From: Gemmatimonadota bacterium
Lineage (GTDB): Bacteria > Gemmatimonadota > Gemmatimonadetes > JACCXV01
NCBI GenBank assembly: GCA_046262075.1
Contig: JBHENL010000104.1
Span: 1 to 36,597 of the forward strand
Length of the DNA: 36,597 bases
Direction of reading: 5' to 3'
The notes below the pieces were generated by a model that saw only the letters and a list, made by a program, of their open reading frames with translations, did no database searches and was not told the DNA's origin. A program made the position numbers and the translations under genes. Below, one piece after another: positions 9,019 through 16,298 of the stretch (positions are counted from its first letter, which is position 1; every line of letters starts with the position of its first letter).

Positions 9019-9993
9019 GTGACCACCCGCCCCACGGTGACGGCGACCCGGCGCTTGCCGGCGGCCGTCGAGGACCAGCTGGGGCTCCGCTACGACGCCC
9101 GCCTCAACGCCCACGACCGGCCGCTCGATGCCGGGGAGCTGCGGGAGGCTCTCGCGTCGTCCGACGCGCTCCTCTGCACGGTCACGGACCGGCTCGACGC
9201 CGGAGTTCTCGCCGCCGAGCCCCTCCGCGCGCGCATCCTCGCGAGCTTCGGCGTGGGCTTCGACCATATCGACCTCGACGCCGCGCGCACGCGGGGGCTG
9301 CGGGTCACGAACACCCCCGACGTCCTCACAGACGACACGGCCGACCTGGCGGTGACGCTCATGCTCATGGCCTGCCGCCGCGCGGGTGAGGGTGAGCGCC
9401 ACGTGCGCGCGAACGCCTGGAGCGGCTGGCGCCCCACGCACATGCTCGGCACGCGCGTGACCGGCAAGACGCTGGGGCTGGTCGGGATGGGCCGGATCGC
9501 GCGCGCGGTGGCGCGGCGCGCGAAGCACGGCTTCGGCATGCGCGTGCTGTTCCAGGACCCCAACCCTCCGCCGCCGGAGGTCGCGGCGGAGCTGGGAGCC
9601 GAGTCGCGCGGGACGCTCGAGGAGCTGCTCGAGGCCGCCGACGTGGTCTCGCTGCACTGCCCGGCCACGCCCGAGACGCACCACCTGATCGACGACGGCG
9701 CCCTCGCGCGGATGAAGCCCAGCGCGATCCTGGTGAACACCGCGCGCGGCGACGTCGTGGACGAGGCCGCCCTCGTGCGCGCGCTCCGGGACGGGCGGAT
9801 CGCCGGCGCCGGCCTCGACGTGTATGAGCGGGAGCCGCGCGTCCCCGACGCGCTGCGCGCGCTCGAGAACGTGGTGCTGCTGCCCCACCTCGGCAGCGCC
9901 ACGCTCGAGTCGCGCGTGGCCATGGGCCTGCGGGCGATCGAGAACCTCGACGCGTTCTTCTCCGGTGCTCCCCTCCGCGACGCCGTCGTCTGA
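9019..9993 (+). CDS. D-glycerate dehydrogenase / hydroxypyruvate-glyoxylate reductase (D-2-hydroxyacid dehydrogenase family)
   Basis: GTG 9019. GVGFDHID, VTNTPDVLTDDTADL, GLVGMGRIA, VSLHCP, LVNTARGDVVDE, GLDVYEREP, LPHLGSAT. The Hpr role is inferred from context. Confidence 0.85.
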   Translation: MTTRPTVTATRRLPAAVEDQLGLRYDARLNAHDRPLDAGELREALASSDALLCTVTDRLDAGVLAAEPLRARILASFGVGFDHIDLDAARTRGLRVTNTPDVLTDDTADLAVTLMLMACRRAGEGERHVRANAWSGWRPTHMLGTRVTGKTLGLVGMGRIARAVARRAKHGFGMRVLFQDPNPPPPEVAAELGAESRGTLEELLEAADVVSLHCPATPETHHLIDDGALARMKPSAILVNTARGDVVDEAALVRALRDGRIAGAGLDVYEREPRVPDALRALENVVLLPHLGSATLESRVAMGLRAIENLDAFFSGAPLRDAVV

Positions 9994-9994
9994 G

Positions 9995-12784
9995 GTGCCG
10001 CCGCCCGCCGGCGCGACCGCCCGGCTCGAGCCCTACGCCGCCGCCTCGCTCCCCCGCTCCACCGCGCCCGCCGCGGCGAGCGCCGCGGCGTACGCGGACG
10101 AGGTCGCCTCCCTGCTCTTCGACCTGCTGCTGGACGTGCTGCGCATCCACGCGCCCGCCGTCGAAGCGCTGTGGCGCGGCGAGCCCGCGCCGGAGCACGC
10201 GCCTCCCGATCTGACGCCACGGCTCCTGCAGGCGCAGGGGATCTGGTTCCAGCTGCTCTCGATCGTGGAGCAGAACGCGGCGATGCGCCGCCGGCGCCAG
10301 ACGGAGGCCGAGCGCGGGCCCGCCGCGTTGCGCGGCACGCTGGCACAGGTGGTCGCCGCCGCCGCCGCGGAGGGAGTGGGCGCCGACGAGATGCGGACCC
10401 TCCTGAAACGCCTGCGTGTCAGGCCCGTCCTCACCGCGCACCCCACGGAAGCCAAGCGCGTGACCGTCCTCGAACGCCACCGGCGCATCTACCGCCGGCT
10501 CGTGGACCTGGAGTCGCCGCGCTGGACGCCTCGCGAGCGCCGGGAGCGGATCGCCGCGCTGCGCGGCGAGATCGAGCTCCTCTGGCTCACCGCGGAGCTG
10601 CGGCTGGAGCGGCCGACCGTCCAGCAGGAGGTGGCGTGGGGTCTGCACTTCTTCCAGGAGACGCTCTTCGGCAGCGTGCCGGCCGTGCTGCGCACGCTCG
10701 AGGAGGCGCTCGAAGCCGCCTGGCCTGCCGAGCGCTTCGACGTTCCCGCCTTCTTTCAGTTCGGCTCCTGGATCGGGGGCGACCGCGACGGCAATCCCTT
10801 CGTCACGAACGCGGTCACGCGCGGCACCGTGCGCGAGAACCGGCTCGCCAGCCTGGCGCGCTACCGCGAGCGACTGCTCCAGCTCCTGCGCGCGCTGTCG
10901 GTCACCGAGCGAGCCACTCCCGTGCCCGCGGCGTTCCGGGAGGCGCTCGCGCGTGCGCTGGAGGCGAGCGGCGACGCCGCGGGCATCGCGGCACGCAACC
11001 CCGGCGAGATCTTCCGGCAGTTCCTCGCGTGCTCCCTGCGCCGTCTCGACGCGACGCTCGCTCTCGCCGGCGGCGGCGCCCCCGCCGGAGACGGCGAGCC
11101 GTACCGCGGCGCGGACGAGCTTGCGGCCGAGCTCCGCGCCGTGGAGGAGGCGCTCGCGGGAATCGGCAGCGGCGCCCTGGCGATCTCGCTCGTGCGACCC
11201 CTGCGCCGGGAGGTCGAGACCTTCTCGTTCAGCACGGTGCGGCTGGACCTGCGCGAGAACGCCGCGCGGGTGCACGCGGCCCTCGTCGAGCTCTGGCGCG
11301 CCAGGACCGGGGCCGACGGTGAGCCTCCGGGAACGGGGACGCCGGCATGGGAGGCGTGGCTGTCCAGCGAGCTGGCACGGCCCCGCTCCGGCGCTCGACC
11401 GGCGCCCGTCCTCTCCACTGCCGCCGGGGAGACCCTCGGTCTCTTCCGCCTCGTGAGCGAGGTTCGCGCGGAGGTGGACCGGGAGGCCTTCGGCACCTTC
11501 ATCCTCAGCATGACCCGCGACGTGGACGACGTCCTCGGCGTCTACCTGCTCGCGAAGGAGGCCGGTCTCTTCGCCGACGCCGCGGGGGTCGAGAGCTGCA
11601 CGCTGCCGATCGTGCCGCTCTTCGAGTCCATCGACGACCTCCGTCGCGCGCCCGAGGTGATGCGGCGCCTCCTGCAGATTCCCCTCGTCCGGCGCAGCGT
11701 GCGCGCGCAGGGCGGCGTGCAGGAGGTCATGATCGGCTACTCGGACTCGAACAAGGACGGGGGGTTCCTGACCTCGAACTGGGAGCTCTCGCGGGCCCAG
11801 CTGCAGCTCACGCGGCTGGGCGACGAGTGCGGCGTCCCGATTGCGTTCTTCCACGGCCGCGGCGGTTCCGTGAGCCGCGGGGGGGCGCCCACCGGACGCG
11901 CGATCGCGGCGCAGCCGGCGGGCTCCGTGCGCGGCCGGTTGCGGATCACCGAGCAGGGGGAGGTGGTCACGTTCAAGTACGCGAACCGCGGGACGGCCGC
12001 CTACCAGATCGAGCTGCTCGCGGCCAGCGTGGTGGAGCACGCGCTGCGCTCGGAACGCGAGCAGGCTTTCGTCCGCGTCGGGGAGTTCGAGGAGGCGCTG
12101 GAGGCGCTCTCCGGGGCGGCGCACGCCGCCTATCGCGGCCTGATCGAGCACCCCGCTCTCGTGGCCTACGTGCAGGCCGCCAGCCCGCTCGAGGAGATCG
12201 CGCTCCTGAACATCGGCTCGCGTCCGGCGCGGCGGACGGGTGCTCGCACGCTCGACGACCTGCGAGCCATCCCGTGGGTCTTCGCGTGGTCCCAGAACCG
12301 CCACGTGATCCCCGGGTGGTACGGCGTGGGCACCGGCCTCGCCACGTTCGTCGAGGTGCGCGGTGCCGCGGGCGAGGACCTCCTGCGGAGGATGTTCGAG
12401 CGCTCCCGGATCTTCCGTCTGATCCTCGACGAGGTCGAGAAGACGCTCGCGCAGGTCGATCTCGATGCGGCGCGGGAGTTCGCGGATCTGGTGGCGGACG
12501 CCGACGTGCGGGAGGCGATCTTCGGGAGGATCGAGGAGGAGTACCGGCGCACCGTCGCGAGCGTGCTGCGGGTGAGCGGGGGCGCGTTGCTCGCGGAGCG
12601 TTTCCCCCGCTTCCGGCGCCGCCTCGAGCGCCGGCTCGCCACCCTGAGCCAGGTGAGCCACAGGCAGGTCGAGCTGCTCCGGTCCTTCCGAGCCGCGGGA
12701 GACGAGGCGAGTCGAGAGCGGCACCTGGCGGCGCTGCTGCTCTCGATCAACTGCACCGCCGCGGGGCTCGGCGCCACGGGCTGA
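9995..12784 (+). CDS. ppc: Phosphoenolpyruvate carboxylase
   Basis: VLTAHPTE, GSWIGGDRDGNP, QEVMIGYSDSNKDGG, FHGRGGSVSRGG, LRAIPWVFAWSQNR, C-terminal AAGLGATG. GTG start 1 nt after the upstream stop. Confidence 0.96.
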   Translation: MPPPAGATARLEPYAAASLPRSTAPAAASAAAYADEVASLLFDLLLDVLRIHAPAVEALWRGEPAPEHAPPDLTPRLLQAQGIWFQLLSIVEQNAAMRRRRQTEAERGPAALRGTLAQVVAAAAAEGVGADEMRTLLKRLRVRPVLTAHPTEAKRVTVLERHRRIYRRLVDLESPRWTPRERRERIAALRGEIELLWLTAELRLERPTVQQEVAWGLHFFQETLFGSVPAVLRTLEEALEAAWPAERFDVPAFFQFGSWIGGDRDGNPFVTNAVTRGTVRENRLASLARYRERLLQLLRALSVTERATPVPAAFREALARALEASGDAAGIAARNPGEIFRQFLACSLRRLDATLALAGGGAPAGDGEPYRGADELAAELRAVEEALAGIGSGALAISLVRPLRREVETFSFSTVRLDLRENAARVHAALVELWRARTGADGEPPGTGTPAWEAWLSSELARPRSGARPAPVLSTAAGETLGLFRLVSEVRAEVDREAFGTFILSMTRDVDDVLGVYLLAKEAGLFADAAGVESCTLPIVPLFESIDDLRRAPEVMRRLLQIPLVRRSVRAQGGVQEVMIGYSDSNKDGGFLTSNWELSRAQLQLTRLGDECGVPIAFFHGRGGSVSRGGAPTGRAIAAQPAGSVRGRLRITEQGEVVTFKYANRGTAAYQIELLAASVVEHALRSEREQAFVRVGEFEEALEALSGAAHAAYRGLIEHPALVAYVQAASPLEEIALLNIGSRPARRTGARTLDDLRAIPWVFAWSQNRHVIPGWYGVGTGLATFVEVRGAAGEDLLRRMFERSRIFRLILDEVEKTLAQVDLDAAREFADLVADADVREAIFGRIEEEYRRTVASVLRVSGGALLAERFPRFRRRLERRLATLSQVSHRQVELLRSFRAAGDEASRERHLAALLLSINCTAAGLGATG

Positions 12785-13915: not shown

Positions 13916-14098
13916 CTACTCCGTCCGGCGGCGCCTGGGCCGCGCCACCAGCTCCCCGCCTCAGTTGGGACAGACGCGACTCAGCGCCTCGGCGCAGCGA
14001 GCGCAGAACGTGCACTCGAAGCTGCAGATGAAGGCGGGCCCCGCGGCGTCCAGGGACGCCTCACACCTCTCGCAACTGGACCGCATCTCGAAGGCCAT
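13916..14098 (-). CDS. DUF1272-family Cys-rich small protein with in-frame TGA at codon 46 (candidate selenoprotein, 60 aa)
   Basis: RBS GAAGGTG and ATG 14098: MAFEMRSSCERCEASLDAAGPAFICSFECTFCARCAEALSRVCPN-[TGA 13963-13961]-GGELVARPRRRRTE-TAG. Recalled family pattern is ICSFECTFC..C....CPNCGGELVxRP. Confidence 0.8.
13925..13963 (-). promoter_or_regulatory. Putative bacterial SECIS element
   Basis: UGA + GGCGGGGAG + stem CUGGUGGCGC / loop GGCCCAG / stem GCGCCGCCGG. The stem is 10 bp including two G-U pairs; the loop starts with GG, 19 nt after UGA. Confidence 0.5.
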
Positions 14099-14133
14099 CG
14101 CCGTTCTCACCTTCCCATTCGACTGCGTCCAGG

Positions 14134-14655
14134 TCAGCGGCTCGCAGTGCGGGGATCGTCCGTCGGATCGACGTAGGTGAGCTTCCAGGGCCCCATCGCG
14201 TGCACCTGGATGACGGTTTCCCCCCGCGACGACAGGAAGTGGACCGTGCCGGCCGGCATGACAGCAAAGCCGCCCGCGGGGAGCGCCGTGCCCCGGCTCT
14301 CGTCGAATTCGTCCCCGAGCCCCATCACCGCCGTGCCAGAGATCACCGTCACGTGCTCGTCGGCAGCATGGTAGTGTGGCTGGACACGGTAGCCGTCGGG
14401 GACCCGAAGACGCATCGTGAAGAGACCCGGCTCCGCCGGATCGCCACGGATGATCGCCATGCGAGCACCCTGCGGCAGGGCCGAGGGTCCCGGCTGCCAT
14501 TCGAGCGTTGCCGGCAGGACGAAGGCGTGCTCCGAGATCCCACCGCCCTCCGGACGTCCCTCGGGGACGTCGCGTGCCGGAGAGGCTTGCTGGGCCTGCG
14601 AGCTTCCGGCGTGAAGGGCCGTACAGAGGACGCCGGCAAGGACGAGACGCTTCAT
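14134..14655 (-). CDS. Secreted cupin-domain protein (DUF4437-like)
   Basis: AAGGAG RBS; signal peptide MKRLVLAGVLCTALHAGSSQA; cupin motifs PHYHAADEHVTVISG and MPAGTVHF. Confidence 0.85.
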   Translation of the reverse strand: MKRLVLAGVLCTALHAGSSQAQQASPARDVPEGRPEGGGISEHAFVLPATLEWQPGPSALPQGARMAIIRGDPAEPGLFTMRLRVPDGYRVQPHYHAADEHVTVISGTAVMGLGDEFDESRGTALPAGGFAVMPAGTVHFLSSRGETVIQVHAMGPWKLTYVDPTDDPRTASR

Positions 14656-14729
14656 CGGTATCGCTCCTTTGGAAGGTCCGGGATCTCTGCTGGTTTCTAC
14701 GTCGCTCGCTCCCGTGAGGCAACATTCCC

Positions 14730-16298
14730 GTGACGCTGCGGCAGGACCACCGGGCGGCAGGTTCGCCGGCGAGCCTCTGCGCGCCATGGACGGCCGCCTT
14801 CGGGCTGCTCGTGGCCGGGGGCGTCCTGCTGCGGGTGGTTGATCTGGGTCACTTGCCGGGGGTCAACGGGGACGAGGCGTGGTACGGCGTGCAGATGCAG
14901 CGCCTCGCGGCCGGGGAGCCCGTGGACTGGCGCACCCCGACGGGGAACCTGATGGGCCCGCTGCAAGCGGGGCCGCTGCTTCTCCTGCAGCTCGCCTTCC
15001 CGCCCTCGATCGCTCTCCTGCGCTGGCCTGCCGTCCTCTCCGGGCTGGCCATGATCGCGCTGGCGGGTCTCGTGCTCGGACGTCGCTTCGGCGGCACGAC
15101 CGGCTGGATCGCCACCTCGCTGGCGGCCGCCCTGCCGGTGGCGATCGCCTACTCCCGCTTCGGCTGGGACGCCAGTCACTCGGGTGCTCTCGCGCTCGTG
15201 GCGCTGCAGGCGGCTCTCGCCACGCGCGTGGTAGGCGTGGCGCTCCTGTTCCTGCTGCTCCTCTGGGTGCACCCCACGAACGTCTTCCTCGCACCCTTCC
15301 TGATCTTCGCGATGCTCGGCGCCGCCCGCGAGCGCTGGGGCCTGCGCCGGGTGCTGCCCCGCGCCGCGGTGCTCGTCGCGCTGCTGGCCGCCGGGACGAC
15401 GGTGCTGCGCTTCACCACGTCCGGAGCCAGTCCCGCGCCGGCGGCGGCCGAAGTTCTCGGCCGCGCCCTCTCCGGAGCGGAGTGGACGAGCTTCGCGCGC
15501 CACCTGACGCGCTTCGTCACGGGCGACGCGACCCACGCGTACGTGGTCGGATCGGCGTTCTCCCCGTGGCCCACCGGCGCGGACCTGGCGGCGGCCGGCG
15601 CCCTGGTCGCGGCCGCCGCGTTCGCGCTGGCCCTGACCGTGAGAGAGGGGCTCTCCGCCACAACGGGTATGGCCGTCGGGCTCGCGGTCGCCCTGGCTGG
15701 CTTCGGGGTCGGGGTGGGAAGTTGGGGCTTGGCGCCGCACACGGAGCGCTACGGCCTCTGGCTCGTGGCGCCGCTCGTCTCGGTGATGGCGGTGCTCGCC
15801 GGAAGGGCGGCAGCGGAGCGGGCGCGACCGGTGGTGCTCGGCGCGAGTGCGGTCGCCGCGCTGCTCCTCCTGCTCCACGCGCAGCAGGGCTACCTGGGCG
15901 CGCTGCGGGAGACGGGCAGCCGCTCGCACCCCACGTTCTGGAGCGGCCCGCAGGAGCCGAAGGCCCTCGCCGTGCGCGCCATCCTGCGCGACGCGCGCGG
16001 GCGGCGCCCCCTGCGGATCGTCGCCGACAGCTGGTGGACTCTCTGGCCGGCGCGCTATCTCACGCACGGAGAGGCGGACGTAAAGGTCGTACCCTTCGAG
16101 GAGCCGCTCGGGGCCGCGGCCGGCGGCGTCACCTACCTGCTGGGGTTTCCGGACGGCGAATTCGAGGGCTGGGGCGCCGGCCGGGCATTCGACGTGCCGG
16201 GTACCGGCCGCCCGGCGGCGCTTCGCGTGTGGCGCCTGGCGACTCCCACCCAACCGCAGGGATCGCAGCCGCGAGCTGAAGAGGCCACGGGGCTCTGA
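14730..16298 (+). CDS. Polytopic GT-C fold glycosyltransferase (PMT/ArnT-like)
   Basis: TM1 followed by the loop LGHLPGVNGDEAWYG (DE motif), about a dozen hydrophobic segments, YSRFGW, HPT and ERY motifs. Confidence 0.65.
   Translation: MTLRQDHRAAGSPASLCAPWTAAFGLLVAGGVLLRVVDLGHLPGVNGDEAWYGVQMQRLAAGEPVDWRTPTGNLMGPLQAGPLLLLQLAFPPSIALLRWPAVLSGLAMIALAGLVLGRRFGGTTGWIATSLAAALPVAIAYSRFGWDASHSGALALVALQAALATRVVGVALLFLLLLWVHPTNVFLAPFLIFAMLGAARERWGLRRVLPRAAVLVALLAAGTTVLRFTTSGASPAPAAAEVLGRALSGAEWTSFARHLTRFVTGDATHAYVVGSAFSPWPTGADLAAAGALVAAAAFALALTVREGLSATTGMAVGLAVALAGFGVGVGSWGLAPHTERYGLWLVAPLVSVMAVLAGRAAAERARPVVLGASAVAALLLLLHAQQGYLGALRETGSRSHPTFWSGPQEPKALAVRAILRDARGRRPLRIVADSWWTLWPARYLTHGEADVKVVPFEEPLGAAAGGVTYLLGFPDGEFEGWGAGRAFDVPGTGRPAALRVWRLATPTQPQGSQPRAEEATGL

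Follow-up and report, generated by a model that had tools for sequence, protein, structure and literature searches.

The prokaryotic selenoprotein families in Table 1 of a 2026 review number more than 110 (PMC13188914), and a DUF1272 protein that uses selenocysteine (Sec) would add one more family to this bacterial catalogue. The same review describes predicted CxxU selenoproteins that are small and Cys rich or metal binding, namely, the CC/Se motif family (NF041239), the dual CXXC motif small protein (NF041197), and MbdU, a metal-binding double selenoprotein (PMC13188914). As far as the main text of the review describes them, these proteins resemble the DUF1272 candidate analyzed here in pairing Sec with Cys within a CxxC-type motif, in the hairpin that lies 3' of the UGA, and in coming from a Sec-utilizing host. 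The DUF1272 protein differs from all three in that its 60 residues match no NCBIfam model, the selenoprotein models included, and in that our searches gave only this one candidate Sec-type gene followed by a hairpin.

The main text of the 2026 review (PMC13188914) mentions neither "DUF1272" nor "PF06906," and the same holds for that of the BSepDB paper. Our statement that DUF1272 is not listed covers the main texts of three papers (PMC13188914, PMC13326102, and PMC12013277), to which supplements could add families. In the text covered by a literature search on "DUF1272," the sole mention of the term was in an unrelated Dickeya paper.

A DUF1272 gene with an in-frame TGA at an invariant Cys position

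The window is the whole 36,597-nt stretch of DNA that we analyzed, taken from contig JBHENL010000104.1 of the Gemmatimonadota bacterium assembly GCA_046262075.1. On its minus strand, an ATG at 14098-14096 opens a frame in which 45 codons precede a TGA. An initial annotation of the window had noticed that the same frame continues past this TGA to a TAG, and our analysis bore this out (Table 1). With the TGA read as U or C, the translation matches the Pfam DUF1272 model (PF06906) at 85.5 bits (E value of 2.5e-24, profile positions 2 to 57 of 57), the gathering cutoff of the model being 25.3 bits. A six-frame scan without read-through scored the gene at 79.8 bits and flagged it as containing "1 TGA," and the whole-genome scan found a single DUF1272 copy. 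Codons 43 to 46 read C-P-N-U when the TGA is taken as U, and they are followed by a 14-residue tail similar in length to the tails of Cys-type DUF1272 relatives.

We aligned the window protein with 44 database relatives. Across these 45 sequences, eight Cys residues are invariant (C9, C12, C25, C29, C32, C35, C43, and C46), and so are P44, N45, G47, G48, L50, V51, R53, and P54. The TGA occupies the last of the eight Cys positions, as the annotation had claimed. DUF1272 scores above the Pfam cutoff in 14 of 60 related genomes, and codon 46 is TGC in all 14 of these orthologues. The family ending CPNCGGELVxRP, on which the annotation had relied, was also recovered: CPNCGGE is present in 116 of the 120 best database relatives and continues with ELV in 115. 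The closest relatives are 64 to 79% identical to the window protein. Its length, its eight-Cys pattern, and its invariant CPN-x-GGELV-x-RP end are the same as those of Cys-type DUF1272 proteins; the differences lie in the TGA, rather than TGC or TGT, at codon 46 and in a 10-bp hairpin, which the Cys forms lack.

A private nonsense mutation from TGC to TGA would also place a stop codon at this position, leaving a recent pseudogene or an inactive 45-residue fragment, and the hairpin would then be a product of chance in GC-rich, Arg-rich coding sequence. The DUF1272 gene is Cys rich, so a random nonsense mutation has a fair chance of falling on a Cys codon. Against this explanation, the gene is otherwise undamaged. 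All invariant residues except that of codon 46 are intact (seven Cys residues plus G47, G48, L50, V51, R53, and P54), and no further damage was seen in the translation or the alignment. Taking this together with the evidence presented below, we regard a nonsense origin of the TGA as doubtful.

Table 1. Positions of the features of the DUF1272 locus in the window
Feature	Position	Strand	Basis or remark
DUF1272 ORF, 60 codons including one TGA, to TAG	13916..14098	(-)	Translation; Pfam PF06906
In-frame TGA, codon 46, at the eighth and last invariant Cys position (the second one in the final CxxC)	13961..13963	(-)	
TAG ending the frame beyond the TGA, after 14 further codons	13916..13918	(-)	
Shine-Dalgarno-like purine-rich stretch GGAAGGTGAG, 7 nt 5' of the ATG	14106..14115	(-)	Putative role
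SECIS-like hairpin (candidate)	13925..13951	(-)	10-bp stem, 7-nt loop

Sec machinery and other UGA-containing genes in the genome

The assembly comprises 2.66 Mb in 258 contigs, with a GC content of 72% and an estimated completeness of 95%. Homology searches identified selA (415.3 bits), selB (310.4 bits, contig C60:23863-25746), and selD (361.5 bits), the last of which carries an in-frame TGA of its own. A tRNA-Sec was found by Rfam (72.2 bits) and was also called by ARAGORN, with the anticodon tca. The annotation had tied a Sec reading to the presence of selA, selB, selC, and selD elsewhere in the genome, and all four are there, selD in its Sec form. Judged by this gene content, the genome can decode UGA as Sec.

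We scanned the genome for in-frame TGA codons flanked on each side by 40 codons with the coding GC3 signature, a design that is blind to short-tail cases such as DUF1272. The scan returned 93 candidates, 47 of them with a sense-strand pattern. In five of the 47, a Pfam domain is broken by the TGA, and the model has Cys at the residue in question. These five are one MerB-like gene, two near-copies of a gene for a CbiA/CooC-like P-loop ATPase, and two rhodanese genes. No Pfam domain spans the TGA in the remaining 42 candidates, which are neighboring genes sharing a frame or unmatched frames, and no plain TGA-nonsense gene was detected among them. The TGA of the MerB-like gene recurs in a relative (G005) at 49% protein identity and that of the ATPase gene recurs in another (G022) at 59% identity, and both are therefore conserved. 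The best NCBIfam match of both rhodanese proteins is the rhodanese-related (seleno)protein model NF041203, below its cutoff.

These genes bear on two alternatives to a Sec codon in DUF1272. The other domain-breaking TGAs of the genome, that is, five of five in the scan plus that of selD, are all Cys-aligned Sec candidates, and this, together with the count of zero nonsense genes among the 42 other candidates, argues against a nonsense mutation. They also bear on a sequencing or assembly error at position 13961 of this metagenome-assembled genome, in which case the true codon would be TGC. The division of the assembly into 258 contigs is in keeping with such an error, as is the database record of the protein, whose 45-residue form reported by gene callers (P0005) is a singleton with one member on one contig. 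However, the six other TGA genes show that such codons are reported faithfully, two of them recur in other genomes, and a single-base slip would have had both to give TGA at just this codon and to do so beside an uncommonly good hairpin, two coincidences at once. We consider an error at this position very unlikely.

Several of the genes found in the scan deserve description in their own right. The MerB-like gene (C26:4390-5076, minus strand, L044) has its TGA within the MerB domain and a GGUC loop at +19. In NCBIfam, its protein falls short of the cutoff for MerB as well as for SaoL. The CbiA/CooC-like ATPase genes (C122:92-871, plus strand, L045, and C213:2-553, minus strand, L046) carry the TGA in a G-U-M-C motif. 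This ATPase is named by none of the NCBIfam selenoprotein models, and "CooC" is absent from the main text of the 2026 review. Possibly, then, the ATPase is a further selenoprotein family that has not been listed. Over 184 residues, its two copies show 95% identity, and the one on C213 meets a contig end, which suggests duplication or strain mixture. A further gene (C22:12337-13179, L172) has an undecaprenyl-diphosphate-synthase domain that covers only profile positions 101 to 178 of 219 and lies directly past an in-frame TGA; its N-terminal part is out of frame, which may reflect a frameshift or a rearrangement.

A SECIS-like hairpin downstream of the TGA

Bacterial SECIS elements generally have a small apical loop with G in the first two positions, located 16 to 37 nt past the UGA. 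The annotation had drawn a 10-bp stem with a 7-nt loop starting with GG at 19 nt from the UGA of DUF1272, and we confirmed both the coordinates and the pairing. The stem arms lie at 13951-13942 and 13934-13925 on either side of the loop GGCCCAG at 13941-13935, 2 of the 10 pairs are G-U, and the stem begins 9 nt past the TGA and the loop 19 nt past it. The hairpin fits the general geometry.

We determined how often a comparable stem follows other codons, counting as qualifying any uninterrupted stem of at least 10 bp whose loop starts at 14 to 25 nt, measures 3 to 9 nt, and has G in its first two positions. As controls, we used 3286 Cys codons in confidently assigned coding frames of the same genome; 13 of them (0.4%) were followed by a qualifying stem, and the control rate was 1.5% when a 16- to 37-nt window was used instead. 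We also resampled synonymous codons 20,000 times with the codon usage of the genome, leaving the peptide unchanged, and 1.85% of the resulting sequences qualified; among 20,000 dinucleotide shuffles, 0.43% did. No qualifying stem was present in any of 96 Cys-type DUF1272 genes, a set from which eight of 105 loci had been dropped for mismatching the Cys-motif expression and in which redundancy between collections is possible; two of the 96 had 9-bp stems. The best stems at that spot in the 14 Cys-type orthologues from related genomes measured 2 to 7 bp. When we considered GG-start loops at 17 to 21 nt, rules that were derived from selD and the MerB-like gene, 24 of the 3286 control codons reached 7 bp and 2 of the 3286 reached 10 bp.

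The annotation had cautioned that hairpins are common in GC-rich DNA, and the folding energies justify the caution. The 48-nt stretch folds at -21.3 kcal/mol, compared to a shuffle mean of -20.2 (z of -0.39), and 61 of 200 dinucleotide shuffles fold at least as well. The sequence is GC rich, and energy alone is uninformative for this hairpin. These results show that the hairpin is rare by geometry, lying in the top 0.4 to 1.85% in stem length and placement across four nulls, and ordinary by energy. The unremarkable energy and the 9-bp stems at the same spot in two Cys-type genes are what one might expect of a nonsense codon with a chance hairpin behind it, whereas the rank of the stem across the nulls argues against that explanation.

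Two other identities for the hairpin were considered and rejected. It is not a repeat element, since the genome holds no second copy and matches elsewhere are just short chance matches of 22 nt or less, and it is not a terminator, since a U-run after the stem is absent. Rfam gave no match at the gathering score. The six weak matches that it listed at E values of 10 or less all fell in unrelated families, and no selenocysteine-insertion element was among them.

We compared the hairpin with those that follow the other UGAs of the genome, a comparison that the annotation had pointed to. In these, the loop starts at 17 to 21 nt on stems of 5 to 7 bp, and the loops are GGUC, GUC, CGUGACCU, CGGUU, and, in selD, GGA, with G in the first or second position. 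The DUF1272 hairpin matches them in its placement and in its G-start loop, a fit that argues against a nonsense codon followed by an unrelated structure. Its loop has no U, whereas the loops of four of the other UGA hairpins contain GU. We infer that the candidate hairpin could be recognized by SelB.

The selD genes of the same bacterial order served as a calibration. Searches of the window genome and its relatives gave 31 selD matches (L001 and L140-L168; relatives G003-G035), 28 with TGA and 3 with Cys. Among the 29 alignable selD genes, counting the relatives and the genome's own, 27 have TGA. A GGA or GGC triloop at +17 was the best hairpin in 21 of these 27 Sec-type genes, with a 7-bp stem in 19 of the 21. 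One pair of the stem differs between groups in a compensatory manner, being G-C in one and A-U in the other. The two aligned Cys-type genes have only 4-bp stems, and the third Cys-type gene was missed by the search expression. In these alignments, the selD hairpin appears and disappears together with the UGA within this lineage. Like the DUF1272 hairpin, it lies right 3' of the UGA and has a GG-start loop, at +17 rather than +19. The two differ in that the selD element has a 7-bp stem and a triloop kept in 21 of 27 genes, while the 10-bp stem and 7-nt loop of DUF1272 were seen once. We also observed that selD switches between Sec and Cys within one bacterial order.

TGA codons in other DUF1272 genes

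The annotation had proposed looking for the TGA and the hairpin in homologues, and here the results went against conservation. Codon 46 is TGC or TGT in 96 of the 96 other DUF1272 genes that we checked at the DNA level. In a sample of the phylum, 36 of 400 genomes have DUF1272, none with TGA. Together with the 14 related genomes, three of which are counted in both sets, this makes 47 other genomes with DUF1272 and TGA at codon 46 in none of them. A search of the 35 nearest relatives detected a selB gene in 31, so that Sec at codon 46 of DUF1272 would be possible there, yet it is not used.

We also searched for the DNA pattern encoding CPN-TGA-GGELV. It had no match in 185,579 species genomes, a collection with one genome per species that possibly excludes the window's own record. 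In metagenome contigs it had four matches, each in a DUF1272 gene whose TGA falls on this Cys position, and their number may or may not exceed what random damage would give. The best stems after these four TGAs measure 3 to 5 bp in the 14- to 25-nt window, which is background, and the 6 bp that two of them (L040 and L041) reach in the 16- to 37-nt window is background as well. A third (L043:3500-3720), on a metagenome contig with 55% GC, has a frameshift after ...ECTF in addition to the TGA at the Cys46 position and probably represents either a pseudogene in decay or sequence of low quality. We rejected the metagenomic forms as Sec homologues because of their background-level hairpins and this frameshift. 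One further stop allele came from a genome (G300:C12:16855-16998) whose DUF1272 has an in-frame TAG and a reduced score of 50.6 bits; by its sequence, this is ordinary nonsense damage within the DUF1272 family.

These data speak for a nonsense mutation. The TGA is private to one gene among the genomes covered, the other stop alleles resemble damage (a TGA with a frameshift in L043, a TAG in G300, and no comparable hairpins in L040-L042), and the metagenomic forms show that TGA at codon 46 does arise as ordinary damage. Since 47 genomes do not share the TGA and the metagenomic forms have no such hairpin, there is no evidence for a Sec clade, and a single-genome candidate remains. The annotation's central claim, a Sec-containing member of DUF1272, thus stands in part: the Sec machinery, the invariant Cys, and the gene-specific hairpin speak for it, and the fact that no relative shares the TGA and the hairpin speaks against it and is, for the most part, the outcome that the annotation itself had said would refute the claim.

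Another possibility is that the 45-residue product ending at CPN, the form that gene callers report, is itself functional and has lost the last ligand and the tail. In that case, other proteins ending at CPN might be expected. A search of shorter proteins with an N-terminally extended translation of the window gene gave two matches, namely, its own 45-residue product and an internal-deletion variant. The same search with the gene of the long subfamily in L040 gave 11 matches, none ending at CPN, and several of these are internal deletions or contig-end fragments. Among word-sharing relatives in these protein sets there is no hidden set of CPN-terminated forms. With C46 and six residues past it invariant in DUF1272, we consider a functional 45-residue protein extremely improbable.

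The shorter proteins included recurrent internal-deletion variants of DUF1272 (P0121, P0124, P0125, P0129, and P0130) from which the Cys-rich core is gone. In these variants, an N-terminal "RPNC" (or "CERC") is fused straight to the C-terminal "PNCGGELV" part, which looks like the outcome of a deletion between the two similar motifs.

Predicted fold of the DUF1272 protein

An AlphaFold model built from the 45-sequence alignment had a mean pLDDT of 84. The best solved structures found by Foldseek with this model were ZZ (p62/SQSTM1, 5ypf) and RING domains, with probabilities of 0.97 to 0.99, TM scores of 0.55 to 0.67, and a weak E value of 0.035. A profile search of PDB sequences returned nothing below an E value of 0.1. 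The DUF1272 protein may resemble these cross-brace fingers in predicted fold, and its eight-Cys spacing suits two interleaved metal sites. The matches are weak, with 21 to 23% identity and no significant sequence match. Our prediction is a small ZZ/RING-like eight-Cys finger with putative metal sites. If the cross-brace scheme applies, residue 46 would be one of the four ligands of the second metal site, the others being C43, C25, and C29. A Cys that serves as a Zn ligand is an atypical place for Sec, which occurs mostly in redox-active sites, and this counts against Sec at residue 46.

Origin of the TGA codon

The explanation that we favor, and that we think is probably correct, is a lineage-specific change from Cys to Sec that gave a selenoprotein form of DUF1272 in a single genome. 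The UGA at codon 46 would be read as Sec by the SelB and tRNA-Sec of the host, and the 10-bp hairpin 19 nt downstream would direct the insertion. Translation would then yield 60 residues, with CxxU in place of the final CxxC. Sec at residue 46 may then create a softer, more readily oxidized metal or redox center.

More tentatively, the gene could be the first natural case of Sec replacing a ligand of a Cys4 site in a ZZ/RING-like cross-brace finger, caught at its origin, with the hairpin arising first and the UGA second. The 3' end of DUF1272, which encodes LVxRPRR, would tend to form hairpins at the right distance. Given a chance hairpin that was already in place, as the 9-bp stems of 2 of 96 Cys-type genes suggest can happen, a new TGA, made by one TGC-to-TGA substitution in a Sec-using host, could be rescued by SelB at once. 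For this reason, a Sec codon and a nonsense mutation are not far apart in origin.

If the codon is read as Sec, the gene captures a Sec codon soon after its origin, a stage rarely seen, while all relatives still have Cys, and it bears on how a UGA and a hairpin originate jointly. Sec would then sit in a probable metal-binding finger and not in a classical redox fold, and the gene would provide a small, tractable protein in which to study selenium in a Cys4 metal site. Among bacterial Sec/Cys pairs that are followed by a hairpin, it would be unusual as a singleton and for its location in such a finger. If the codon is nonsense only, the gene is a warning that a Sec/Cys alignment, the Sec machinery, and a hairpin are insufficient alone in GC-rich genomes.

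Gene context of DUF1272

We compared the neighborhood of the window gene with 108 other DUF1272 loci. The gene just upstream has no counterpart at any of them, and the downstream gene is matched only in L025. The gene context gives no functional clue for DUF1272. The upstream gene (14137-14787, minus strand) is cupin-like, with weak matches to ChrR cupin-like and DUF4437 models and a signal-peptide-like start. Elsewhere in the window, a full-length PEP carboxylase gene lies at 9824-12781 on the plus strand.
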